Positions 32,858-55,227 of a stretch of DNA of 64,000 nucleotides are shown here, piece after piece. The notes under the pieces were generated by a model. That model had not been told where the DNA came from, ran no database searches, and saw only the letters and a list, made by a program, of their open reading frames with translations. The position numbers and the translations under genes were made by a program. Each line of letters opens with the position of its first letter. The first letter of the stretch is position 1. This DNA is from Pseudomonadota bacterium (lineage in GTDB: Bacteria; UBA10199; 2-02-FULL-44-16; JAAZCA01), in the NCBI GenBank assembly GCA_016927275.1, contig JAFGMW010000095.1, positions 9,247-73,246 on the forward strand, read 5' to 3'.

Positions 32858-32876
32858 ACGGTGCTGTTCCGTTCAA

Positions 32877-32907
32877 AAGAAACCCCCCGTTCCCCGGGGC
32901 TTTTTGA
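32877..32907 (+). terminator. rho-independent terminator (copy 2 of the duplicated terminator module)
   Basis: aaaagaaaccccccg-tt-ccccggggctttttg followed by GAGGCGGGCG, near-identical to 30327-30360. Confidence 0.7.
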
Positions 32908-32968
32908 GGCGGGCGCTTTATCGCATGATTTTAGAATCTACCCAAGCAGCCTCGATTGACATGGTCCT

Positions 32969-33451
32969 TCAGCGTCGGATGACCCTCTTCGGATAACTGC
33001 CGTCCTCAAAATGCTTCTCGATCCAGCCGTTCTTCACGTTCTCCCGGGCATCGAAGTGCGACACGTATGGCTTGATGTCGATGAGCGGCGTCTCGTCGAG
33101 GATATCGACCTCCCCGAAGACGACCACGCCATCCTCCACCTTCAGGAGGCGCACGACCGAAAGGCCGATGTGGTTCGGCCTGTTTGGGCTGCGGATGGCG
33201 AAGATGCCGTGCTCCTCATCCTCAAGGAAGGGACGGCCGCGAAGCTTCGCCTCCTTGGCCCTGTTGAAGTGACAGATCAGGATCGCATGGGAAAATCCAT
33301 CGAGGTCTTTGAGGCCGTCCCAGTATTCAGGGAACAGCTCCGCGCGGCCCGTAACGTCGTCTTTGAAGCGGCCCTGGATCGGCATGCCGCTCGGCTCGTC
33401 GTAGGGGGTGCGGATGATGCCGATGGGGTGAATCGTTATGGCGTCGGTCAT
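32969..33451 (-). CDS. tsaA: TsaA/YaeB-family tRNA methyltransferase-like protein
   Basis: ITIHPIGIIRTPYDEPSGMPIQG...GFSHAILICHFN..PNHIGLSVVRLL signature of YaeB/TsaA family; start set at internal ATG. Confidence 0.7.
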   Translation of the reverse strand: MTDAITIHPIGIIRTPYDEPSGMPIQGRFKDDVTGRAELFPEYWDGLKDLDGFSHAILICHFNRAKEAKLRGRPFLEDEEHGIFAIRSPNRPNHIGLSVVRLLKVEDGVVVFGEVDILDETPLIDIKPYVSHFDARENVKNGWIEKHFEDGSYPKRVIRR

Positions 33452-33661
33452 GCCCATCCCATCGCATCGAAGCAAGGGAAGGTCAACCGTTCTGACACGA
33501 CATCGAACCTGCCACCTGCAGATACCTGATGAACCGACGATGACGCTCCGACCGGGGTCTCCCAGGTGTATATGCGGAAGGCTCAAGCGGGACGCGGGCC
33601 AGAGAGGCCCTGAAACTGGAGAACCCCTGCCTGCCCGCCAAAGCGTTACTCTCGCGAATGA

Positions 33662-33862
33662 TCAGGGCCTCTCTCTGTAAGCCTCTTTGCGGTGGGAAGC
33701 TGCGATCATCGATACGACCTTTGTCTCTTCGTCGATTATGTAGAAAAAGCGCCAGTCGCCTACGCGATAACGCCATGTGGCCGGATGCCAATCCCTGAGG
33801 CGCTTGATGTTGGAGCCAAAGTGAGGCTCATTCTTCAATTGCGGACAAACATGCTCCTGCAA
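33662..33862 (-). CDS. RelE/ParE-family type II toxin (start uncertain; possibly N-terminally degraded)
   Basis: C-terminal NIKRLRDWHPATWRYRVGDWRFFYIIDEETKVVSMIAASHRKEAY matches RelE/ParE core; in-frame upstream 45 codons (to a TGA near 34000) are toxin-like (AIKRRIIA...) but contain no ATG/GTG; table start is TTG. Confidence 0.6.
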   Translation of the reverse strand: MQEHVCPQLKNEPHFGSNIKRLRDWHPATWRYRVGDWRFFYIIDEETKVVSMIAASHRKEAYRERP

Positions 33863-34155
33863 TTTCTCCTCAAGGATGCCCTTGCGATGCCTTGCAATGA
33901 TCCGGCGTTTTATTGCACGATCGATGCCAGATATGGACTGAAAAATACCGTGAGGAATTGAGGGGATTTGACGCTGGACAACAGTGATTGTGCACAGGGC
34001 TGTTCAGTTTTGTGTTGCAGTGTTCAGACTTATGAATCCCATATATATCTAACACTTATCATTGCTCCGTCCGACGGGGATATGTATGACGGGGATGTGA
34101 CGCGGTTTCGCCTATCGCCGAAATTTGATATAAGTCCGGCTGAAGGGAGCGAACA

Positions 34156-35421: not shown

Positions 35422-35465
35422 CAACCCCAAAAAAATACCGCCGGTTGGGGGTATTTTTTGGGGTG
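35422..35465. terminator. bidirectional terminator hairpin between convergent genes
   Basis: caaccccaaaaaaatacc-gccgg-ttgggggtattttttggggtg palindrome with U-runs on both strands. Confidence 0.6.
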
Positions 35466-35516
35466 CTTTAAGGGACAATTTGCGAACCTATTCCCCATGG
35501 ACGTCCTTTTATGGGC

Positions 35517-36278
35517 CTATCTTTCAGCAACGACGAGCATTTCGAAATCATCGCTGGTCAGCTTGTCGTTTCTTGAAAACGCTCCGAGCTTTGCACCAAA
35601 GATATCGATCTTCTTGAACCCGAGCGTCTTGAGAAGCCATGTTATCTCGCTTGGCACGTAATAACGCTCGTTGCACTGCAACTCTTTTTTATTGCCCAAA
35701 TCATCCTCGAGCACAACGGTGTTATGGTCACGGAAAGTCATAAGATCAAATGAGCAGTCCTTACACTGGGACTGGCCTTCTTTCTGTGCCGACTCATAGA
35801 ATTCATTGACAGAATGAAACAGCGGGAACAGTCCGTTTAATGTGGTGAAGATGAACTTGCCTTTGTCTTTCAGCGCCTTTGTTGCGTTCCTGAGGATCTC
35901 AAAGTTCATCTCATCTGTCTCCATGAGAGAAAACCCGCCTTCGCACAGCATGATTGCCAGATCAAATTCACCGTCAAAGGAAAGATCGCGGGCGTCCTGT
36001 ATTTGGAAGTCAATGGTCAATCCTGACTCCTGTGCCTTTTCCCTTGCCCATTTGATCTGGTTCTCGGAAAGATCGACTCCGGTCACACTATATCCTCTTT
36101 TTTTCAACTCAATCGAGTGGCGGCCGGTGCCGCAACCGATGTCTATGATCTTTAACGATTTATCGCGGGCTATCTCCTGTTCAATAAAATCGCACTCGCC
36201 CATAGTGCCCTGGACAAAACACTCGTTGTCGTATTTGTGTGCGTAATTTTCATATAACCTTTCATACCACTGTTTCAT
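35517..36278 (-). CDS. class I SAM-dependent methyltransferase (markedly lower GC than surroundings)
   Basis: Motif I IIDIGCGTGRHS, post-I VTGVDLS; start at internal ATG (MKQWYERLY) with AGAGGT RBS; AT-rich codon usage contrasts with neighbours. Confidence 0.8.
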   Translation of the reverse strand: MKQWYERLYENYAHKYDNECFVQGTMGECDFIEQEIARDKSLKIIDIGCGTGRHSIELKKRGYSVTGVDLSENQIKWAREKAQESGLTIDFQIQDARDLSFDGEFDLAIMLCEGGFSLMETDEMNFEILRNATKALKDKGKFIFTTLNGLFPLFHSVNEFYESAQKEGQSQCKDCSFDLMTFRDHNTVVLEDDLGNKKELQCNERYYVPSEITWLLKTLGFKKIDIFGAKLGAFSRNDKLTSDDFEMLVVAER

Positions 36279-36420
36279 ATTTTTACCTCTTCGTGTAGAT
36301 AACCTCATTGGCCGATTGTTATCAAATTAAAAAAGTTTTCATGCAGTGACCCGAAAAAGGGGACGGCCCCCGGTGGAAAATGAGTTGAAATCATTCCGAT
36401 CGGAAAATGTCTTCTGCTCA

Positions 36421-36459
36421 AAAGAAAGGCGGGAGGGGTGATCCCTCCCGCCTTTCTTT
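36421..36459 (-). terminator. hairpin terminator immediately 3' of tRNA-His
   Basis: aaaggcgggagggg-tgat-cccctcccgccttt flanked by A/T runs. Confidence 0.6.
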
Positions 36460-36536
36460 TGGGGTGGCTAGTGGGATTTGAACCCACGACCCTCTGAGCC
36501 ACAGTCAGATGCGCTAGCCGCTGCGCCATAGCCACC
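36460..36536 (-). tRNA. tRNA-His (anticodon GTG) with G-1 and encoded CCA
   Basis: Minus-strand sequence GGTGGCTATGGCGCAGCGGCTAGCGCATCTGACTGTGGCTCAGAGGGTCGTGGGTTCAAATCCCACTAGCCACCCCA folds as cloverleaf; anticodon loop CTGTGGC; extra 5' G pairing with discriminator C is His-specific. Confidence 0.85.
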
Positions 36537-36547
36537 ATCTTTAAAAA

Positions 36548-36580
36548 CAAATTCCAAATTCCAAATTCCAAATCCCAAAT
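36548..36580. repeat. tandem heptamer repeat (AAATTCC)x3-4 upstream of tRNA-His
   Basis: caaattccaaattccaaattccaaatcccaaat; related motif recurs at 36740-36775. Confidence 0.7.
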
Positions 36581-36597
36581 AAAATTGAAAACCAAAA

Positions 36598-36731
36598 CTG
36601 GTGGGATTTGCCCACTCCGTTGCCGCCCTCCTGCGCTTACCTCCGGTAAGCTCCAGCGGGTCCTCGACGCCGCCTATGATTTTTCGACATTCGAAAAATC
36701 ATGCGGTCGTCGGGACTGCGCCATAGCCACC
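36598..36731 (-). pseudogene. partial tRNA-His duplicate / tRNA-like remnant interrupted by a ~95-nt structured insert
   Basis: Minus strand begins GGTGGCTATGGCGCAG (identical to tRNA-His 5' acceptor+D arm) and ends ..GGAGTGGGCAAATCCCACCAG (T-arm-like), but acceptor 3' strand and anticodon arm are replaced; contains perfect palindrome ATGATTTTTCGA-cat-TCGAAAAATCAT (36676-36702) and hairpin GCTTACC-gga-GGTAAGC; flank (ctgcgccatagccaccRtctttaaaaacaaattccaaat) duplicated. Confidence 0.45.
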
Positions 36732-36790
36732 GTCTTTAAAACAAATTCCAAATCCCAAGCACCAAATTCCAAACAATACTGAACCCAGTG

Positions 36791-36850
36791 CACCAGTCAC
36801 GAGTCACCAGTCACGAGTCACGAGTCACGAGTCACGAGTCACGAGTCACG
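36791..36850. repeat. tandem octamer repeat array (CAGTCACGAG/GTCACGAG)x7, member of the dispersed GTGACTSG repeat family
   Basis: caccagtcacgagtcaccagtcacgagtcacgagtcacgagtcacgagtcacgagtcacgg. Confidence 0.8.
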
Positions 36851-36989
36851 GCTTTCAAGGGCTGCCCTAATTAGCCAATCCGGTCGGCTTTGTCCACGAT
36901 TTATTGGCCTCGAATTCCATAGAAATTCAAGCTCTTGACAGCATATCAGAACCTGATAAGGAGTTGGAAATTCATCACAAGGGGGGCTC

Positions 36990-37844: not shown

Positions 37845-38618
37845 CTACTCGCCGCCTGCCGCATCCTCGACCCTCGTGAGCCTGTAGACCTTGAACTCGT
37901 CCTTGTCCGGGCAGCCGTCGCCCTCGCACTCGATATCCCTGTACTGGCCCAGAAACTCCACGATGCCGTTGTACATCGCCACCGCCTCCCTCGCCTGCCC
38001 CCGGAGGATCTCCGGCATCCTGCCGGTGTCGGTCTTGAGATAGGACTTCCTCTCGGCGCACCCGCCCCCGCCGCCGATCTTCGCCATGCCGCAGAGATTG
38101 TCGAAGACCTCGTAGAACTCCTTGCCCAGCCGGTAGCCGACCCCCTTCGAGGAGCCGGAGCCCCTGATCCTCTCGATGTCGATTCCCAGGATGTTCGAGT
38201 CGCTGAATATGCCCGCGCCCTCCAGGTGCCCCACGACGTCGTGCTTCCAGTAGTCGGCGCTGAACTCCAGCTCGCTCGATAAAAGGCCGCCCACGGCCCC
38301 GTTTTCCTTCCACCTCTCCAGGACCTTCCCCGCCATCTTGAGCTTGTTGTAGAGGTTGAAGAACATCCTGATGCCGTCCGCCTTCGACGGCTCCATGATC
38401 CCTTTTTTCACGAACGCATCGACGACCACGTCCTGAAAATAGAGCGACGCCACGCCTCCTTCGACTCCCTCGTGAAGCGAGAAATCGTTACGGTCCAGTA
38501 TTCTGAACGGCGCCCGCTCGTCATGGCTCTTGAGAAAGCAACCGAGATCTTCGTCCTCGACAGCTATCTCCAGATAGCGGTCCACTATCCTGTTCACGCA
38601 GACATCTTTCGGCTCCAT
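37845..38618 (-). CDS. hypothetical protein (Cys-containing, possibly DUF3786-like)
   Basis: Start at internal ATG (MEPKDV) preceded by GAGGAGG; conserved-looking CEGDGCPDKDEF near C-terminus. Confidence 0.45.
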   Translation of the reverse strand: MEPKDVCVNRIVDRYLEIAVEDEDLGCFLKSHDERAPFRILDRNDFSLHEGVEGGVASLYFQDVVVDAFVKKGIMEPSKADGIRMFFNLYNKLKMAGKVLERWKENGAVGGLLSSELEFSADYWKHDVVGHLEGAGIFSDSNILGIDIERIRGSGSSKGVGYRLGKEFYEVFDNLCGMAKIGGGGGCAERKSYLKTDTGRMPEILRGQAREAVAMYNGIVEFLGQYRDIECEGDGCPDKDEFKVYRLTRVEDAAGGE

Positions 38619-38702
38619 GCGCACCTCCTCGCCGGCCGCCTGCAATAAAAAGGCCGGACGATTACTTTCTCGGCGCTGTCGAATATTTGTTGCGGGGTTT
38701 TT

Positions 38703-40091
38703 TCAGCCCACGCTCATGTACTCCCTGACCCTCAGCAAGACCCCGATATCATTGGCTTTTTTTCGGCAGGCCTCGATGTCCAGGCCGGGCAGGGCAACGA
38801 CGGTCACGACCACCTCGGGTATGCACCTCTTCGCCTCGAGGACGAAATCGAGCATGGCCGCGTAGGCCTTCTCGCCGAACCTCGAGGGGCAGATCGACGC
38901 ATGGGAGGCCGCATCGGCCGCGTTCATGGAGACCGACACGGAGTCTATGAGCCCGGCGAGTTCCGGGACCACGTTGCGGCCGTAGACGAGGTTGGCCAGC
39001 CCGTCGGTGTTGAGCCTCACCTTCTTCGCGCCGCGCTCCTTCATCCTGCGCGCGATGACCTTGAGCACCTCCAGCCTGAGCGTGGGCTCGCCGTACCCGC
39101 AGAACACCACCTCGTCGAACGTCTCAGGCTGTCCCACTGCCTGGAATATCTGCTCCACGTCCGGCTCGTGCTCGAGCTTGAGGTAGTAGCCCTTGACCTC
39201 GAAGTCGGTGAACTTGGGGCAGAAGGTGCACGCCATGTTGCAGCGGTTGGTGATGTTGAGATAGAGCGAGTTGCGTATCCTGTAGGCGATGCTCGTCTCC
39301 ATCTCGCAGCCGGGCAGCCCGAAGAGGCGCCTGGCGTTCAGCGTCGTGACGCGCGCGACGTCCTCGATCGCGACCTTCTTGATGCGCGCGATCTCCCCGG
39401 CCACCTCCGCCACGTACGCCGGCTCGTTGCGGCCGCCCCTGTGCGGCTCGGGCGCGAGATAGGGGCAGTCGGTCTCGAGAAGGATCCTCTCGAGCGGGAC
39501 CCCCGCCACGACCTCCCTGAGGACCTTCGCGTTGCGGAAGGTGACCACGCCCGGCACCGAGATGAAAAAACCCTCCTTCACGATGCGCCTGGCGAGGGCG
39601 AGGTCACCGGAGAAACAGTGGAACACGCAGCCCCTCTTCGGGGCGCCGGTCTCCTCGATCACCTTCATCGCCTCTTCGATCGCCTCGCGCGCGTGAATCA
39701 CCGCCGGCTTGTCGACGCGGATGGCGAGCTTCATCAGCTGGCGGAACCTGTGCGCCTGACTCTCGGGGTCGGAATGCCTGCGGAAGAAATCGAGACCGAT
39801 CTCTCCTATTGCCACACACTTCGGGTCCCGGGCCATAGCCTCTAGATCGGCGATCCACGAGTCGTCCATCTTGTCCGCATCGTTGGGGTGCACGCCCACC
39901 GTGGCGAAGAGCCTCGGGTCTGTCCGCGCCAGGTCCAGCGCCGCGCGGTTGCCCTCGAGGCCCGCGCCTGCGCCCACGAGCACGATCTGGGACAGACCGG
40001 CCTCCCAGGCGCGGGCGAGGACCTCCTCCCTGTCTTTTTCGAACTCCGGGAATGTGAGGTGGGCGTGGGTGTCGACGAGCTCGATCTTCAT
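38703..40091 (-). CDS. TatD-family hydrolase fused to a TatD-associated radical SAM domain
   Basis: N-terminal TatD signatures (LVDTHAHL, GEIGLDF, HCFSG, ETDCPYL); C-terminal ~200 aa with CNMACTFCP (CxxxCxxC) radical-SAM cluster motif. Confidence 0.75.
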   Translation of the reverse strand: MKIELVDTHAHLTFPEFEKDREEVLARAWEAGLSQIVLVGAGAGLEGNRAALDLARTDPRLFATVGVHPNDADKMDDSWIADLEAMARDPKCVAIGEIGLDFFRRHSDPESQAHRFRQLMKLAIRVDKPAVIHAREAIEEAMKVIEETGAPKRGCVFHCFSGDLALARRIVKEGFFISVPGVVTFRNAKVLREVVAGVPLERILLETDCPYLAPEPHRGGRNEPAYVAEVAGEIARIKKVAIEDVARVTTLNARRLFGLPGCEMETSIAYRIRNSLYLNITNRCNMACTFCPKFTDFEVKGYYLKLEHEPDVEQIFQAVGQPETFDEVVFCGYGEPTLRLEVLKVIARRMKERGAKKVRLNTDGLANLVYGRNVVPELAGLIDSVSVSMNAADAASHASICPSRFGEKAYAAMLDFVLEAKRCIPEVVVTVVALPGLDIEACRKKANDIGVLLRVREYMSVG

Positions 40092-45201: not shown

Positions 45202-46311
<1,110 letters not shown>

Positions 46312-47402: not shown

Positions 47403-50400
47403 TTATGTGCCCGTGCGGAGCATCGCTGCGGCCGACATCATGGGCACCGCTGCGACCGAAGGCGCAAGCGGCCGGAAGGGCATCGCGAACGCAGGATTGA
47501 TCTCAGGGAGCATCGAATCCCTGTACATCACCGCACCGGTGGCCAGTGGAGACGGCTTGGGGCGCTTCTCGTGGCGGTCGAGGAAGTGGACGCGAGCGCG
47601 GCCGATTCCAAGGCCCTGCGCATGCTCGACAATGTCCTCGTCGAACTCCGCAAGCCTCGCGAATCCGCCGGCAGTATAGGCCCTCTCCACGAGCAGGTGC
47701 TCCCTGCCCTCTTCATCGCGCGTCACCTCGAGCATGCGCCTGGCCATCACCTCGCCGTCTATTATGTGGTTCGCCAGCTTGAACTGGCCCCACATAAGCT
47801 TGTTCAGCGGCTGGCCGCGACCGTTCGTCGAGTCTGCGTAGAGACTCGATAGCCGCTGGCAGGTCTCGGTTGGGATCATGCCGTGAAACGCGATCTTTTC
47901 CACCAGCCCGGTTATCTCGGTGAGCGCCGCCTTCTTCGCCGTCTTCACGCCCCTGGTGAGGCCGGTGACGAGGTTCTTGAGATCGACGCGGGCATTGGCA
48001 AAGAGGTCGCCGTAGGTCTCGCGTATCTGTGCGTACCCCTTCTCCATGATGTCGTGGAGCCGCTTCGCCTCCTCCATGTCCGCATCGCCGCTCTTCAGTT
48101 TCTCTGTCAGCGCACGCAGACCGTCCGGGAGCTCCTTGAATTCGCCGTCCGCTCCCGGCGTCGAGTTCACGTGCACGGCGAGCTGCCCTGCCGCCTGTCC
48201 CATCACAATGGCCTTCGCCTCGCTCTCGTCGACAGACTCGCCAGTGTTATGACGCAACTTCTTCCACTCCGTGCGCCAGCGCCCCACGAAATCAGGAGAA
48301 AACCCGAGCTGATCCCGCATCCTGTCGTATCGTTTCAGATAATGCAGATTACCTTCAAGGACAGGGCTCATGACGAGATCCGAGATCAGCGACCTGAGTA
48401 TCCGGACCCCTTCCTCATCCATGAACGACGCGGACTGGGCAAACAGGAGCAGAAGGCCCTTGTCGGAGAGGAATCCGCGGACTTCCTGCGCATGGCGCCA
48501 TTTCCTCGAGGACTCCCTGCCCTCCGGCTGCCCGTCCCTGAAGAGCAGGTCCACTGCCCTGTCGTCCCCGATCCTCTCGCGCAGGAATGCAAGGAGCGTC
48601 TTCTCGACACCTGACCTTAGGGCTGCCCGCGTATCGCCTTCCAGATCCCTGTGTGATCTGTAGAACTCCCTGCCCACCTCTTTCGGCAGCGAATCCAGCG
48701 CAGTCAGGGCCCTGAGCGTGCGAAGGGTGTTGCGCACGGACTTCCACTTGCCGGGATCGGTCGCCTCGAACACCCTGCTCATCACTTCTATCTTCTCGAA
48801 GGTCCAATCGCCAAGCATGTCCAGGACCGTCATGACCGAGTCGCGAAATCCGATGAAACCCGGTTGAGCGGCAAAGCCGCGCAGGTTGCGCGCGGCTTTC
48901 TCCGAAAAGCCCATGAGCTCCAGGTCCGCTACCCAGCTGCCGGACTCGAACCCGGCCTTGAAGAATCCGACAGAGGAGAGGTGATAAAAAGTCTGCTTAA
49001 AAACACCGGCGAAGCATTTCTTATCACTACAATTCCCCATGTACCATCTCAGGGATTTGTCAGCCGCACTGGCGACCGGACCCTCTGCCCTGAATTTTCT
49101 GGCCAGCAACCCATATATATGGGCCACAGATTTAATCACCCTTGTCGAATGGATTTTGTAGCTGTACCCGGGATTCAGAATCTCTATAATAGTTTGTGCG
49201 CCCTTGTAGACCTCAGGTGAGTTGTCTTCGAGTCTGTGAGCAAAGCGCGCATACGCTTCCAGGACATCCGCCACAACATCTTCCGACTGATTCCACTCCA
49301 GCATAAGTCCGCGCATTGCCGCAGCGCCTTCATGGATCTCCGGTGCTCCCTCCGCGAACTTCTTCAACAGCGCCGAATAGACACGGGCTGCCAGGCTCCG
49401 CACACGCTGTTCAGGGTACCTCATCAGACCGCGCAGGGCCTCGGCCTCGCGATAGAACTCGGGCGATGCCCCTGCAAACCTCTCTGAAAGCCTGACATAG
49501 GCATCCGCCGCTGTACCGCGCACATTCTGTTGAGGGTCCATCATCAGCCCGCGCAGGGCCGCAGCCTCCTCATAGACCTCGGGCGAACCCACCGCGAACT
49601 TCATGCACAGCCTCTCATAGCCATGAATCTCCGCATTTGTTCGCACCGCCCTTTCAGGATCTGTCATCAGCCTGCGCAGGAGAAAGGCGCCCATATGGAC
49701 GTCGGCCGAGTCCTCTTTGAATTTCGCCGACAGGATGCCATAGGTATAAGCTGCCTCGCTGCGCACATCCCATTCGGGATCTTTCATCAGCCTGCGCAAT
49801 TCCGAGGCGCCCAGCGCGACCTCGGCCGAACCCTCTGCGAATCTATCTGACAGCATTTGGTAGGCAAGGATGGCGCGGACGCGTACACCCTGTTCGGTGT
49901 CCGCCATCAGCCTGCGCAGGGCAGCCGCCTCTCTGCAGGTCTCGGGCGACGCGTCTGCGAACCTCTCCGAAAGCTTCCCGTAGGTACCGGCGGATCTGTT
50001 GAGCACATCGCCCTCGGGGTCCGTCATCAGCCTGCGCAGGGCCTCGGCCTCGCGATAGACTCCTGCAGAGCCCTGAACGAATTTCTTCGACAACATCTTG
50101 TAGGCCTCGGCTGCATCGTAACGCACACCGTCTTTGGCATCCCTCATGAGCATGCGCAGGGCCGCAGCGCCGAGATAGACCTCGGCAGAGCCCTCGATGA
50201 ACTTCTCCGACAGGGCCCCGTAGGTCCTGGCCGCAAACACGCGCTGGCCTTCCTTGTGGGAACGCATCACCCTGCGCAAAGCCTCGGCTTCGTTTATTAC
50301 CTCGGGCGGCTCCACCGCAGCCGCTGTCGACTTCGGGCGGAATAGGGAGCCGACCAGCCCGGCTATTCCGCTGAAAAAGGTCTCGACCGGCCCGGCCCGC

Positions 50401-50567
50401 ACGTAGGCGTCAACACCTCCCTCATCAAGCAGAGATGGATCGATCACGGAGGGCCGCGTATCGTCCTCTCTCGGACGCGCCAAAGGCCGCTCGGCCACTA
50501 TTTTCACGTCGTCGGACATCCCCCGACTCCTGTGCGCGCCCGGACGGGCGCGGGAAAGGTCGAACAT
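47403..50567 (-). CDS. large HEAT/PBS-lyase-like repeat protein with ~10 tandem 37-aa repeats
   Basis: Repeats of consensus EA[AE]ALRRLMxDPExxVRxxAAxAYxxLSE[RK]FAEGSPExY; underlying 111-bp DNA tandem repeats ~49230-50340 (antisense frame shows periodic HQPAQG); alternative start ATG 50519. Confidence 0.6.
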   Translation of the reverse strand: MFDLSRARPGAHRSRGMSDDVKIVAERPLARPREDDTRPSVIDPSLLDEGGVDAYVRAGPVETFFSGIAGLVGSLFRPKSTAAAVEPPEVINEAEALRRVMRSHKEGQRVFAARTYGALSEKFIEGSAEVYLGAAALRMLMRDAKDGVRYDAAEAYKMLSKKFVQGSAGVYREAEALRRLMTDPEGDVLNRSAGTYGKLSERFADASPETCREAAALRRLMADTEQGVRVRAILAYQMLSDRFAEGSAEVALGASELRRLMKDPEWDVRSEAAYTYGILSAKFKEDSADVHMGAFLLRRLMTDPERAVRTNAEIHGYERLCMKFAVGSPEVYEEAAALRGLMMDPQQNVRGTAADAYVRLSERFAGASPEFYREAEALRGLMRYPEQRVRSLAARVYSALLKKFAEGAPEIHEGAAAMRGLMLEWNQSEDVVADVLEAYARFAHRLEDNSPEVYKGAQTIIEILNPGYSYKIHSTRVIKSVAHIYGLLARKFRAEGPVASAADKSLRWYMGNCSDKKCFAGVFKQTFYHLSSVGFFKAGFESGSWVADLELMGFSEKAARNLRGFAAQPGFIGFRDSVMTVLDMLGDWTFEKIEVMSRVFEATDPGKWKSVRNTLRTLRALTALDSLPKEVGREFYRSHRDLEGDTRAALRSGVEKTLLAFLRERIGDDRAVDLLFRDGQPEGRESSRKWRHAQEVRGFLSDKGLLLLFAQSASFMDEEGVRILRSLISDLVMSPVLEGNLHYLKRYDRMRDQLGFSPDFVGRWRTEWKKLRHNTGESVDESEAKAIVMGQAAGQLAVHVNSTPGADGEFKELPDGLRALTEKLKSGDADMEEAKRLHDIMEKGYAQIRETYGDLFANARVDLKNLVTGLTRGVKTAKKAALTEITGLVEKIAFHGMIPTETCQRLSSLYADSTNGRGQPLNKLMWGQFKLANHIIDGEVMARRMLEVTRDEEGREHLLVERAYTAGGFARLAEFDEDIVEHAQGLGIGRARVHFLDRHEKRPKPSPLATGAVMYRDSMLPEINPAFAMPFRPLAPSVAAVPMMSAAAMLRTGT

Positions 50568-52067: not shown

Positions 52068-52365
52068 GACAAAATACTACCAAAAGATGAGGTTCTTTAC
52101 AACGTAATTATTCCTATAGATGAGGTTCTTTTCACTTCTCCATCCTATAAACCGCTGCAAACAGCACTTTTCGCCGAAAACTGCCAACAGGATGACATAT
52201 TTCCAGTGTGGGGCGATTGTTTCCTGACGTCCCCGTGCGCAACATCATTCCAGCCGACATCATGGGCATGGTCGCGGCTGCAAGATGCACTCACGTCTTT
52301 TCGTTTGCTTCTCATGACGATTTGACATATATCAATTCTACCATTTTTTCCTCAAGGAGGTTTTT

Positions 52366-52920
52366 ATGAAAAGGATAGTAGTTTATTTTTCGATAGTTGG
52401 TCTGTTGGTGCTCGCAGCAAAACCTGTGCGAGCCGAATCTGGAGAAGAACCCGGCAAATATTATGTTTATGTTCAAGCAGTGAACAACGGGGCCCCATTC
52501 GGCTTGCAAGAGTGTGATATGAAGGCATTTTACTGCGAAGCGGCCAACCCAGACAACTGCTGGAGTGCAAAGACTTACACAAGCGATCAGGGGGGCGCGC
52601 GTTTTTGGTTCCAGAAAGTTTTTCAGGACAGAGAAATGGGATACAATATTTATATTACCGCTACCCCTAAGATGAGTTATCTTCTCTCCAGCAAGACCTC
52701 CCCGGATTTCCTTGTTGATGCAGATCATTCCCCATACTCGTCATGGGAATCGAGATTTATATTTTATTTTGGCAAACCGGTAATAAAAAGGCTGACGACT
52801 AAAGACATAGAGATGGTTGGCACCCCGCAAGACATGAAACAAATGGTTAAAGGAGAACCGCATAGCGGCGAAGCGCATATCGAACGGTCATTGCGCAAAG
52901 TCGTGCCTTTACAAAAATGA
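52366..52920 (+). CDS. hypothetical secreted protein (low-GC gene)
   Basis: Signal peptide MKRIVVYFSIVGLLVLAAKPVRA; AT-rich codon usage; AGGAGG RBS. Confidence 0.5.
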   Translation: MKRIVVYFSIVGLLVLAAKPVRAESGEEPGKYYVYVQAVNNGAPFGLQECDMKAFYCEAANPDNCWSAKTYTSDQGGARFWFQKVFQDREMGYNIYITATPKMSYLLSSKTSPDFLVDADHSPYSSWESRFIFYFGKPVIKRLTTKDIEMVGTPQDMKQMVKGEPHSGEAHIERSLRKVVPLQK

Positions 52921-53054
52921 TTTTGGATAATCCTGAGTTGTTTTATTGATGCCCAAACAAATGCCCCGTATTTAGGGGGCATTTGTCTTTAATCCGGCAC
53001 GATCCGGAATCGGCTGCTACAAGCACCCTTTCAAGGTTCGGCAAAGGGATTAAG

Positions 53055-53520
53055 TTATCTCATCAAGCCCCATAACATTTTGCTGATGGCCTCAAGGCGC
53101 GATTTGAGGGCGGCTGCCTCAACTGGCGTGAGCAGCCTGAAGGCGCGCATGAGGTCGATGCAAGCGCCTACTTCGGCCGAGCTGGCGCGGGCGATCGTAA
53201 AGAAGCGGAAAACACAGAGCTCAGAGAGCAGATTCAGATTGAGAAAACAGATTAAGAAAACGGCGCTCAGAACTCGCCCTACCATCGCCTTACCATCGCA
53301 CTATCATCGTTTGATCATCGAACTATCATCGTATCTGTTTTTTTACCGGGCAACGGCAAACGTGCATACAGCCGCGAACGCCGCCGTTTCTTTCAAATCG
53401 CGCTCGGGTCGCTCGCCGAAACCAGCGCAGCACTCGATCTTGCGCTTGCCTTCGGCCTCATCACCTCTGCTGCGCAGGACTCGCTCAAATCGCGGCTCCA
53501 ACTCGCATTCACGATGATTG
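53055..53520 (-). pseudogene. degraded four-helix-bundle protein gene (23S rRNA intervening-sequence protein family), frameshifted
   Basis: One frame gives C-terminal ..TIARASSAEVGACIDL...LEAISKMLWGLMR; another upstream frame gives ..LRSRGDEAEGKRKIECCAGFGERPERDLKETAAF resembling the family's N-terminal half; no single intact ORF. Confidence 0.35.
53281..53335. repeat. five tandem 11-bp iteron-like repeats (ACCATCGCCTT/ACCATCGCACT/ATCATCGTTTG/ATCATCGAACT/ATCATCGTATC)
   Basis: Direct inspection; located inside the islet next to the degraded four-helix-bundle gene. Confidence 0.6.
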
Positions 53521-53565
53521 AGGCCCTCCCATGAGCCTCAATCTTCTCTCTCAGCTCGGCTTTCG

Positions 53566-53598
53566 GTGTTTCGGTTCTCGGTGTCTCGGTTCTCGTCT
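53566..53598. repeat. tandem ~15-bp repeats (GTGTYTCGGTTCTCG)
   Basis: tttcggtgtttcggttctcggtgtctcggttctcg. Confidence 0.55.
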
Positions 53599-53677
53599 TT
53601 TCGAGGTACTCGGTGGAAGGGGAAGGCGATGAAACTGCGATGGTGCTGCGATGATACGGCGATGATGAGGCGATTTT

Positions 53678-55192
<1,515 letters not shown>

Positions 55193-55198
55193 AAAATT

Positions 55199-55227
55199 CC
55201 GTGACTGGTGACTGGTGACTGGCGTGA
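55199..55227. repeat. octamer repeat array (CCGTGACTGGTGACTGGTGACTGG) between rSAM/DUF2344 stop and rng start
   Basis: Member of GTGACTSG family. Confidence 0.75.

Follow-up and report, generated by a model that had tools for sequence, protein, structure and literature searches.

Here, we analysed a stretch of 64,000 nucleotides (nt) of contig JAFGMW010000095.1 (hereafter the window) from an uncultivated, deltaproteobacteria-like lineage of roughly 60% GC, labelled by NCBI as a 'Proteobacteria bacterium' metagenome-assembled genome (MAG). We found that the sole tRNA gene of the window, tRNA-His(GTG) as called by ARAGORN, is the meeting point of three unrelated kinds of feature, namely acquired gene cassettes, a structured element and generic repeats, a reading to which we assign a probability of roughly 60%. 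The structured element, a tRNA-His copy expanded within its T-loop, has a conserved and covarying predicted structure in the alignment of its copies and is a well-supported candidate for a new tRNA-derived structured RNA. The cassettes are represented in the window by the gene of a class I S-adenosylmethionine (SAM)-dependent methyltransferase, which its sequence marks as foreign and as shared across phyla.

The evidence base is a handful of metagenomic contigs, with about 466 kb of sequence fetched for comparison (loci are given as L numbers); the relatives were reached via the adjacent outer-membrane protein (OMP) gene (56-84% identity to the window protein) and a degenerate tRNA pattern. 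The exact tRNA-His sequence had no match in genome contigs or in metagenome contigs, and reference genomes contain relatives of a nearby TatD/radical SAM gene (69% identity), with no tRNA-His close to these. Read on the minus strand, the locus runs from a promoter-like block through a heptamer array, a degenerate copy of the tRNA flank, a copy of tRNA nt 1-16, about 105 nt with two hairpins and a T-arm-like piece to a better flank copy with (TTTGGAA)n, tRNA-His, a terminator hairpin, an AT-rich spacer and the methyltransferase (Table 1). A preliminary description of this locus had reported the tRNA-His(GTG), which ARAGORN and Rfam confirm and which lies on the minus strand; the sides that the description called 3' and 5' of the gene are correct only in that orientation.

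The cleanest copies of the element in the relatives are found in L040 (1924-1739, minus strand) and L037 (662-478, minus strand). There, a tRNA-His copy runs complete as far as GGGTT of the T-loop, an insert of about 125 nt intervenes and the sequence …C/RAATCCCAC-YRG follows. In both contigs, a promoter-like block precedes this insert-bearing copy, and the intact tRNA-His comes after it. L027 and L034 carry the element with a decayed tRNA body, and further copies lie downstream of the intact tRNA-His in L030, L037 and L040. In L040, the D-stems of the insert-bearing and the intact tRNA-His (1924-1870 vs 1711-1660, minus strand) differ by compensatory changes (GCGC/GCGC vs GTTC/GAAC).

Five full copies could be aligned with a mean column identity of 78%, and their consensus fold of 41 pairs, with 92.6% of the cells paired, places two hairpin arms on a junction that is closed by the T-stem. 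Indeed, 18 of these 41 pairs change on both sides, compared with 6.0 ± 1.8 in column shuffles (0 of 500) and 0-3 in slid controls, although the shuffle test overstates significance for related sequences. The unpaired motifs are fixed, with GTTGAG / CGATTAC in arm A and GGAGTG / CGTTTACGGAG in arm B. The alignment contains 9 G·U cells and not a single A·C cell (p = 0.004). Because G·U is present and A·C never occurs, the fold belongs to the tRNA-sense strand, as expected of an RNA and not of a double-stranded palindrome. Since its 3' acceptor strand is missing, the element cannot act as a tRNA. A covariance model built without the window (R1) also finds the copy in L030 (54.7 bits), a module of L037 that consists of arm A alone (40 bits) and, in L040, a minimal copy. 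Rfam gave only tRNA matches in the window and the relatives and left the element unmatched, viral contigs contained no match to its right end, and the literature that we searched offered analogies only and no description of a T-loop-expanded element.

Is the partial tRNA duplicate upstream of tRNA-His in the window a member of this family? The preliminary description had reported a copy of the first 16 nt of the tRNA with about 25 nt of its flank, framing a T-arm-like remnant, a perfect palindrome with a 12-bp stem and a second hairpin. All of these were recovered, and the copied flank proved to be longer. The 16 nt are identical (16/16, at 36716-36731), the flank extends over about 50 nt at 82-84% identity (36541-36589 vs 36735-36783; 36521-36557 vs 36716-36752), and this window-specific duplication, counting the flank and tRNA nt 1-16 together, comprises about 65 nt. 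The T-arm fragment CAAATCCCACCAG matches the tRNA at 12 of 13 positions (36598-36610 vs 36468-36480). In the model alignment the palindrome (36676-36687/36691-36702) takes the position of the arm A hairpin, and the second hairpin (36626-36660, CTTACC/GGTAAG) corresponds to arm B, of which CCCG/UGGG, CTGGAG, the hairpin CTTACC-GGA-GGTAAG and the following CAACGGAG are all present, together with an extra insertion of 11 nt. The right end, ACGGAGTGGGC/AAATCCCAC-CAG (36598-36620), agrees with the conserved right end ACGRAG-GGG-C/RAATCCCAC-YRG; it lies upstream of tRNA-His in the same orientation and is placed as in L027, L034, L035, L037 and L040. Its 20-mer ACGGAGTGGGCAAATCCCAC (36601-36620, minus strand) is unique in the window (0.1 expected), and the sequence past CCCAC reads CAGTTTT, not TAGCCACC. 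The remnant folds with -65.4 kcal/mol (z = -4.5 vs shuffles). The best window match of model R1 lies at 36596-36724 on the minus strand (17.2 bits, E 0.024; next E 0.6), and the closest relative, L034 (OMP 84% identical), retains a full copy of the element. As judged from these comparisons, the window remnant is best read as a degenerate member of the conserved element family, most likely a decaying or diverged relic, and its palindrome is specific to the window.

The remnant is no functional tRNA gene, as ARAGORN finds only the intact gene and the E-value mode of Rfam gives no tRNA match. In covariance searches it matched no Rfam 15 family at the gathering score and nothing credible in E-value mode, so that it is not accounted for by a known functional RNA. 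Of the two identities that the preliminary description had offered for the remnant, the tRNA-derived structured RNA fits the remnant, read as a degenerate copy of a conserved, covarying element, better than the scar of an integration event does.

How could such an element act? Upstream of the tRNA locus, a promoter-like block is conserved, in which TGGACA, the 17-nt spacing and the following TA are invariant in 8 of 8 lineages. If this block is a promoter, a single transcript would span from it down to tRNA-His. We speculate that the element is transcribed together with tRNA-His from this block and acts as an RNA, which would probably bind a protein or serve processing within the pre-tRNA-His transcript; the likeness of its two modules suggests protein binding, possibly related to processing.

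Alternatively, the element could be a pure recombination scar: an integrative element once resided in the T-loop of a duplicated tRNA-His and was mostly deleted, leaving two attachment arms without RNA function, as a miniature cis-mobilizable remnant. This would explain the position of the element and its tRNA-identical right flank, since the insert lies exactly at the classical integrase crossover position in the T-loop and is followed by the tRNA-identical RAATCCCAC-YRG. Moreover, the downstream copies in L030 and L040 end in longer, attR-like tRNA 3' fragments (AATCCCACTAGCC(ACCCCA)), the copies are of very unequal completeness and the locus is demonstrably prone to recombination. A scar explains neither the covariation nor the strand asymmetry, however. 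Non-functional remnants should decay, yet the stems covary and the loops stay constant, even between the copies L037u and L037d of one genome, and the occurrence of G·U without A·C indicates a single-stranded fold of the sense strand. Furthermore, none of the copies seen carries genes between its arms, no integrase was found in the loci examined and the left junction shows no core duplication. We consider a pure scar, the main rival, unlikely, though worth keeping in view. The hotspot that the preliminary description had envisaged is supported, as set out below, and its repeated integration and excision stays conjectural because no integrase was found in the examined open reading frames (ORFs) or in the related loci.

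Two further explanations concern the window remnant itself. Its hairpins might form a leader terminator or attenuator, or stability hairpins for tRNA-His, with an incidental likeness to the element of the relatives. Indeed, a terminator scan picks out GTGGGCAAATCCCAC with CAGTTTTGGT behind it (36615-36601) as terminator-like and the fold is strong (z = -4.5), but the relatives have no T run past the hairpin, and right-end sequence, arm order and position are common to their element, so we hold this to be very improbable. A miniature inverted-repeat transposable element (MITE) that landed in a tRNA pseudogene, as the perfect 12-bp inverted repeat and the short, AT-rich insert of about 95 nt might suggest, is hardly credible: no other copy of the insert or the palindrome exists in the 64-kb window or in any fetched locus, the insert ends carry neither terminal inverted repeats nor a target-site duplication, and the palindrome occupies the place of the arm A hairpin.

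Several other identities were considered by reading the sequences and rejected. An attC-like identity would require the boxes in another order, by our reading of the sequence. The core motifs of a hammerhead or other small ribozyme are missing, and there is no Rfam hit. An IS200/IS605-type palindrome-associated transposable element or an IS91 insertion does not fit an element that is not dispersed, on an unsuitable target. ARAGORN finds no transfer-messenger RNA (tmRNA), permuted or not, and a spliceable T-loop intron is inconsistent with the missing 3' acceptor strand.

On the other side of tRNA-His, the methyltransferase gene was confirmed by Pfam and is, as the preliminary description had stated, far more AT-rich than its surroundings, with a GC content of 0.46 compared with 0.62 in the window and 0.62-0.63 in the flanks. 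Metagenomic homologues of the protein are very numerous. Of at least 8000 scored candidates, the best 120 listed are 84-90% identical in amino acids (aa); the named ones among the matches listed are mostly labelled Candidatus Omnitrophota, with one labelled Hadarchaeaceae. We compared the gene in a 44%-GC genome (L002-L009), in Omnitrophota (L010-L013), in a 38%-GC contig of 3.4 Mb (L014) and in an archaeal contig (L015, Hadarchaeaceae), where its neighbours are TBP and ribosomal-protein genes. The window gene is 80-86% identical in nt to the genes in these four contexts, and the gene keeps a GC content of 0.40-0.45 in every comparison host (host GC 0.38-0.55). No tRNA adjoins it in any of the loci L002-L015. 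It is absent from the six syntenic tRNA-His loci, which count as seven contigs (L027, L030, L034, L035, L036, L037, L040), so that the acquisition proposed in the preliminary description withstands the comparison with syntenic relatives; it is also absent from two more distant relatives by TatD. In sequenced plasmids and phages, the closest relative is only 32% identical, NCBIfam and PDB give no specific function and a look-up of the exact protein returned no record. The homology to the L002-type donor starts about 24 nt ahead of the ATG, and the imported segment of about 1 kb extends from just upstream of the ribosome-binding site to a motif of about 34 nt ending CACCCCA. On this comparative evidence the gene arrived recently from a low-GC donor on that segment. 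A native gene of atypical composition, for which an intact ORF, its own ribosome-binding site and the lack of an adjacent integrase might speak, is effectively refuted by the nt identity to genes of other phyla and an archaeon, by its absence from all syntenic relatives and by the 3' motif shared with the donor-type genome. The uniformity of the 253-aa homologues, 84-90% identical across very many metagenomic clusters from various phyla and an archaeon, is unusual. Its neighbourhood in Omnitrophota often includes genes for stress or ion detoxification (CrcB, Zip, Na/H exchanger).

Is the tRNA-His locus an integration hotspot, as the preliminary description had proposed? The pairing of tRNA-His with the OMP gene is kept in L027, L030, L034, L037 and L040, and the TatD/radical SAM gene adjoins OMP in L027 and L030. 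The other side of tRNA-His is variable, with ars and FGE-sulfatase genes in L027, PhdYeFM/ParE, an IS3 transposase and a giant helicase in L030, PAS and nucleotidyltransferase cassettes in L036, and ORFs without a Pfam match in L034 and L040. The gene content downstream of tRNA-His thus differs in each related lineage and the locus is therefore a hotspot, now with a foreign methyltransferase in the window. By the usual marks of an island, atypical composition and presence or absence among relatives were both found, and a tyrosine or serine recombinase at the edge was not, in the window ORFs and related loci examined.

The motif AATAGGTTCGCAAATTGTCCCTTAAAGCACCCCA, which closes the methyltransferase cassette, lies 31 nt past the stop codon, and its final CACCCCA is the 3' terminus of tRNA-His. 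If the As behind it are included, its last 10 nt (CACCCCAAAA, 35459-35468) are identical at 10 of 10 positions to the 3' terminus and trailer of tRNA-His (36456-36465). This direct repeat brackets the methyltransferase insert of about 1 kb; it is short, and 6 of 2000 shuffles score equally, and the context in the relatives supports it. With up to 3 mismatches the motif occurs once in the window (0 expected by chance). Nine independent instances were found in the fetched sequence, co-oriented with tRNA-His wherever the contig carries one and usually 27-84 nt after a stop codon. They close other cassettes of one to three genes adjoining tRNA-His in the relatives, and what comes next is a terminator hairpin in some cases and a conserved 'left end' GACAACTGGTAGAACCC… in the others. 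In the closest, 44%-GC genome, the motif follows the methyltransferase and also precedes a TrmO-DsrE-methyltransferase module, so that it brackets a 2-kb unit. The left end follows the motif in L002, L004, L027 and L034 and the real tRNA-His in L035 and L036, where the usual motif-following sequence GACAACTGGTAGAAC… is placed after the true tRNA-His terminus CTAGCCACCCCA. In L036, two single-gene cassettes follow one another, the first with a gene for a PAS protein and the second with one for an NTP_transf_8 protein, and the motif closes both. The last motif of L036 and its terminator are about 79% identical to the tRNA 3' end and terminator of L030, and this second motif therefore looks like the displaced original end.

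A second cassette appears to be present in the window. The TrmO-like gene is 84% identical in aa and 76% in nt to the TrmO that heads the L002-type TrmO-DsrE-methyltransferase module; it is followed by a decayed motif and a terminator hairpin (32875-32905) and preceded by a left-end remnant homologous to the sequence after the cassette motif in L027.

The left end comprises GGGACAACTGGTAGAACCC, a hairpin of variable sequence and then GTTTCAGGGC…GCGTCCCGCTTGAGCCTTCCGCA (L035 2790-2906; L036 570-790; L027 3545-3440, minus strand; L002 4754-4900). It looks structured, with its 5' GGGAC complementary to GUCCC, and Rfam contains no match to it. Viral contigs contained no match to it. Four matches of viral contigs to a 16-mer of the motif were dismissed as chance, as none extends to the full motif. 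A reading of the whole motif as a decayed tRNA T-arm and acceptor was likewise rejected as a resemblance only, with no statistical support outside the CACCCCA core.

We speculate that a site-specific recombinase supplied in trans recombines the cassette ends with the 3' terminus of tRNA-His (CACCCCA core) or with earlier copies of the motif. Cassettes would thereby accumulate in tandem and could move between very different hosts.

Between tRNA-His and the methyltransferase lies a terminator hairpin with a stem of 19 bp, which the preliminary description does not mention. A segment of 124 nt spanning tRNA-His and this hairpin is 91% identical between the window and L027; the hairpin is thus native, being homologous to that which follows tRNA-His in L027. 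A smaller terminator-like hairpin (36359-36371) lies inside the AT-rich spacer, and another, the bidirectional CCCCAAAAAAATACC/GGTATTTTTTGGGG hairpin, lies between the methyltransferase cassette and a convergent gene of the beta-lactamase family.

Several observations weigh against the picture drawn so far. For the element, there are only five full copies from four lineages. The window remnant scores weakly in model R1 (17.2 bits vs 123-158 bits for full members); it lacks the 5' strand of the T-stem (GTGGG/CCCAC), having tRNA nt 1-16 and non-canonical closing pairs instead, and in its arm A the internal-loop motifs GTTGAG and CGATTAC are absent and the hairpin is an AT-rich palindrome. The conserved TGGACA block is not called by a scan with a generic promoter consensus, and transcription of the copies downstream of tRNA-His is doubtful because they lie behind a strong terminator. 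For the cassettes, the motif shows no significant likeness to the tRNA 3' end outside a core of 8-10 nt. The window methyltransferase cassette sits past the native tRNA terminator and not at the CCA end, and it has no left end, which leaves its left junction undefined. In the window, Pfam found no recombinase or integrase gene in the ORFs examined between 24.4 and 40.8 kb (on the left of the tRNA over about 10 kb, on the right up to the TatD gene). None was found in the related tRNA-His loci either. The transposases seen are an IS3 transposase in L030 and, in the donor-type L002, a Mu/TnsB-like one.

The third kind of feature, the repeats, is generic in part. The preliminary description had noted (AAATTCC)n repeats ahead of both tRNA copies, and these were found as (CAAATTC)n, i.e. 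(TTTGGAA)n on the minus strand, at 36548-36580 (4.7 copies, 96% matches) and at 36742-36773 (4.6 copies, 72% matches). (TTTGGAA)n also lies directly upstream of tRNA-His in L035 and L036 and is probably part of the tRNA-His leader. What had been described as an octamer array is a heptamer array, (CACGAGT)x8.6 by TRF, and a generic repeat. The (GTGACTS)n heptamer family recurs at five other intergenic sites of the window, twice as inverted pairs; because the same family recurs between genes as a genome-wide repeat, the array is no part of the history of the locus. These arrays look like a genome-wide family resembling repetitive extragenic palindromes (REP) with a 7-nt period. The other arrays lie at 40815-40841/40860-40887 and 55868-55897/55930-55957 (the inverted pairs, which could form long hairpins), at 46228-46254 and at 55201-55222. 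Elsewhere in the window, a gene-poor gap of 1.6 kb (about 52070-53680) is packed with tandem repeats of 11, 15 and 22 nt (TRF rows 53235-53674), and a 120-nt tandem repeat (49399-49624; 1.9 copies, 76% matches) lies within an ORF of 1054 aa (47403-50567, minus strand).

A bolder reading would see two linked, undescribed systems at tRNA-His, a new class of structured RNA together with an integron-like cassette system without an integron that crosses phyla by means of a recombinase in trans. The T-loop-expanded element would then be two similar protein- or ligand-binding hairpin modules, co-transcribed with tRNA-His, which control its maturation or mark the locus, and the cassettes would be anchored at the tRNA-His 3' terminus, end in the motif of about 34 nt and be exchanged across phyla, even between Bacteria and Archaea. 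We regard both parts holding jointly as a tentative proposal with the odds clearly against it.

Table 1. Coordinates of the features at and around the tRNA-His locus of the window.
Feature	Position	Strand	Basis or remark
Second, decayed cassette-end motif AGATTCTAAAATCATGCGATAAAGCGCCCGCC	32908-32939	minus	29 nt past the stop codon of the TrmO-like gene
TrmO_N-family gene	32969-33457	minus	Pfam; start codon inferred by alignment to the L002-type TrmO
Cassette left-end remnant (…GGCAGGGGTTCTCCAGTTTCAGGGCCTCTCTGGCCCGCGTCCCGCTTGAGCCTTCCGCA) ahead of the TrmO-like gene	33590-33660	minus	93% over 41 nt
Bidirectional terminator-like hairpin (CCCCAAAAAAATACC / GGTATTTTTTGGGG)	35425-35463	both	Sequence reading
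Cassette-end motif AATAGGTTCGCAAATTGTCCCTTAAAGCACCCCA	35459-35492	minus	About 34 nt, ends CACCCCA
Class I SAM-dependent methyltransferase, 253 aa, GC 0.46	35517-36278	minus	Pfam
AT-rich spacer (GC 0.41) between tRNA terminator and methyltransferase start	36279-36418	minus	
Terminator hairpin immediately past tRNA-His, with a perfect 19-bp stem and a subsequent T run	36419-36461	minus	Sequence reading
Intact tRNA-His (anticodon GTG, encoded G-1 and CCA)	36460-36535	minus	ARAGORN; Rfam RF00005, 67.8 bits
Spacer/leader immediately upstream of tRNA-His, carrying (TTTGGAA)n	36536-36597	minus	
Degenerate copy of the T-loop-expanded tRNA-His element	36598-36731	minus	Sequence comparison and model R1
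Second, more degenerate upstream-flank copy with TTTGGAA-like repeats (36742-36773)	36732-36790	minus	
Heptamer array (CACGAGT)x8.6 = (GTGACTC)x8.6	36791-36850	minus	TRF, period 7
Promoter-like block cgTGGACA-N17-TAATTA	36864-36897	minus	Conserved across lineages

Several neighbouring genes deserve mention. An ORF of 266 aa (37845-38645, minus strand) without Pfam or NCBIfam match lies between the OMP and the TatD/radical SAM genes; L027 and L030 lack it at the equivalent position, and its relative in L034 is only 28% identical. The adjacent gene (38703-40091, minus strand) encodes a protein of 462 aa that joins a TatD-family hydrolase to a radical SAM domain, a fusion that is conserved in the lineage and found at 69% identity in two 'Myxococcales'/'Pseudomonadota' MAGs. 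Between the TrmO-like gene and the beta-lactamase-family gene, a stretch of low GC (33600-34150) contains a short ParE-toxin-like ORF (33662-33862, minus strand); the equivalent variable region of L030 holds the PhdYeFM/ParE pair. The donor-type contigs L002-L009 (JGI/Logan, GC 0.44) carry a Mu/TnsB-like transposase at one end, and their cargo differs by strain, looks defence-related (Mrr, SLFN/AlbA_2, SNF2 helicase, VapBC) and is interspersed with the cassette motif; this region may be the cargo of a Tn7-like element.

How does the locus compare with known systems? tRNA genes are classic entry points for foreign DNA. Islands can accumulate in tandem at the 3' ends of tRNA or tmRNA genes via tyrosine integrases, as in the ssrA-specific islands of Dehalococcoides (PMC3146451). 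Like these islands, the tRNA-His locus contains variable, horizontally acquired cargo directly downstream of a tRNA-type gene, co-oriented repeats with the 3' terminus of the gene that mark successive ends, strain-variable content and atypical composition. Unlike them, the tRNA-His loci have no integrase in or near them, the units comprise one to three genes (1-2 kb), the cassette repeat shares just 8-10 nt with the tRNA while its other 25 nt or so are derived from the cassette, and the window cassette lies past the tRNA terminator and not at the CCA end. The cassettes resemble those of integrons in being small, mostly single-gene and co-oriented, with a motif like a recombination site about 30 nt after the stop, and in the presence of the same cassette in distant phyla and an archaeon. 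In contrast to integrons, the ORFs examined include no IntI gene, a tRNA gene takes the place of attI as the anchor of the array, and the motif, by our reading, is no imperfect palindrome and lacks the RYYYAAC/GTTRRRY boxes of attC. Because there is no integrase and no attC structure, the cassettes fall outside both tRNA islands and integrons as defined. They nevertheless present a tRNA-His hotspot without a resident integrase yet with integron-sized cassettes, of which the methyltransferase and TrmO genes are found in Omnitrophota, in an archaeon and in this MAG. If the motif of about 34 nt is a recombination site, it would point to a route of gene exchange across phyla that current island and integron finders miss.

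The element in turn invites comparison with other tRNA-derived sequences. tmRNA and YrlA are functional tRNA-derived RNAs. Cis-mobilizable elements (CIMEs) are att-flanked remnants of integrative elements, without an integrase of their own; those described are kilobases long and are not known to retain covarying hairpins. The element resembles CIMEs as a short, att-bounded DNA without a recombinase beside an integration site, and differs from them in the length of the remnant, about 125 nt here. A functional pseudo-tRNA is exemplified by tRNA-Other of Bacillus cereus, which lies beside a genomic island (PMC3399842). As in pseudo-tRNAs, we find a tRNA-derived, RNA-like element that is unfit for translation at an island-prone tRNA locus, with the tRNA fold partly retained (the T-stem, joined in L040 and L037 by the D and anticodon arms). 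Unlike pseudo-tRNAs, it is expanded within the T-loop by two similar hairpin modules, it has no 3' acceptor strand, several copies of it in tandem surround the real tRNA-His and Rfam contains no match to it. Kept in several copies beside its parent gene, the T-loop-expanded element offers a concrete, testable case of the re-use of a tRNA duplicate.

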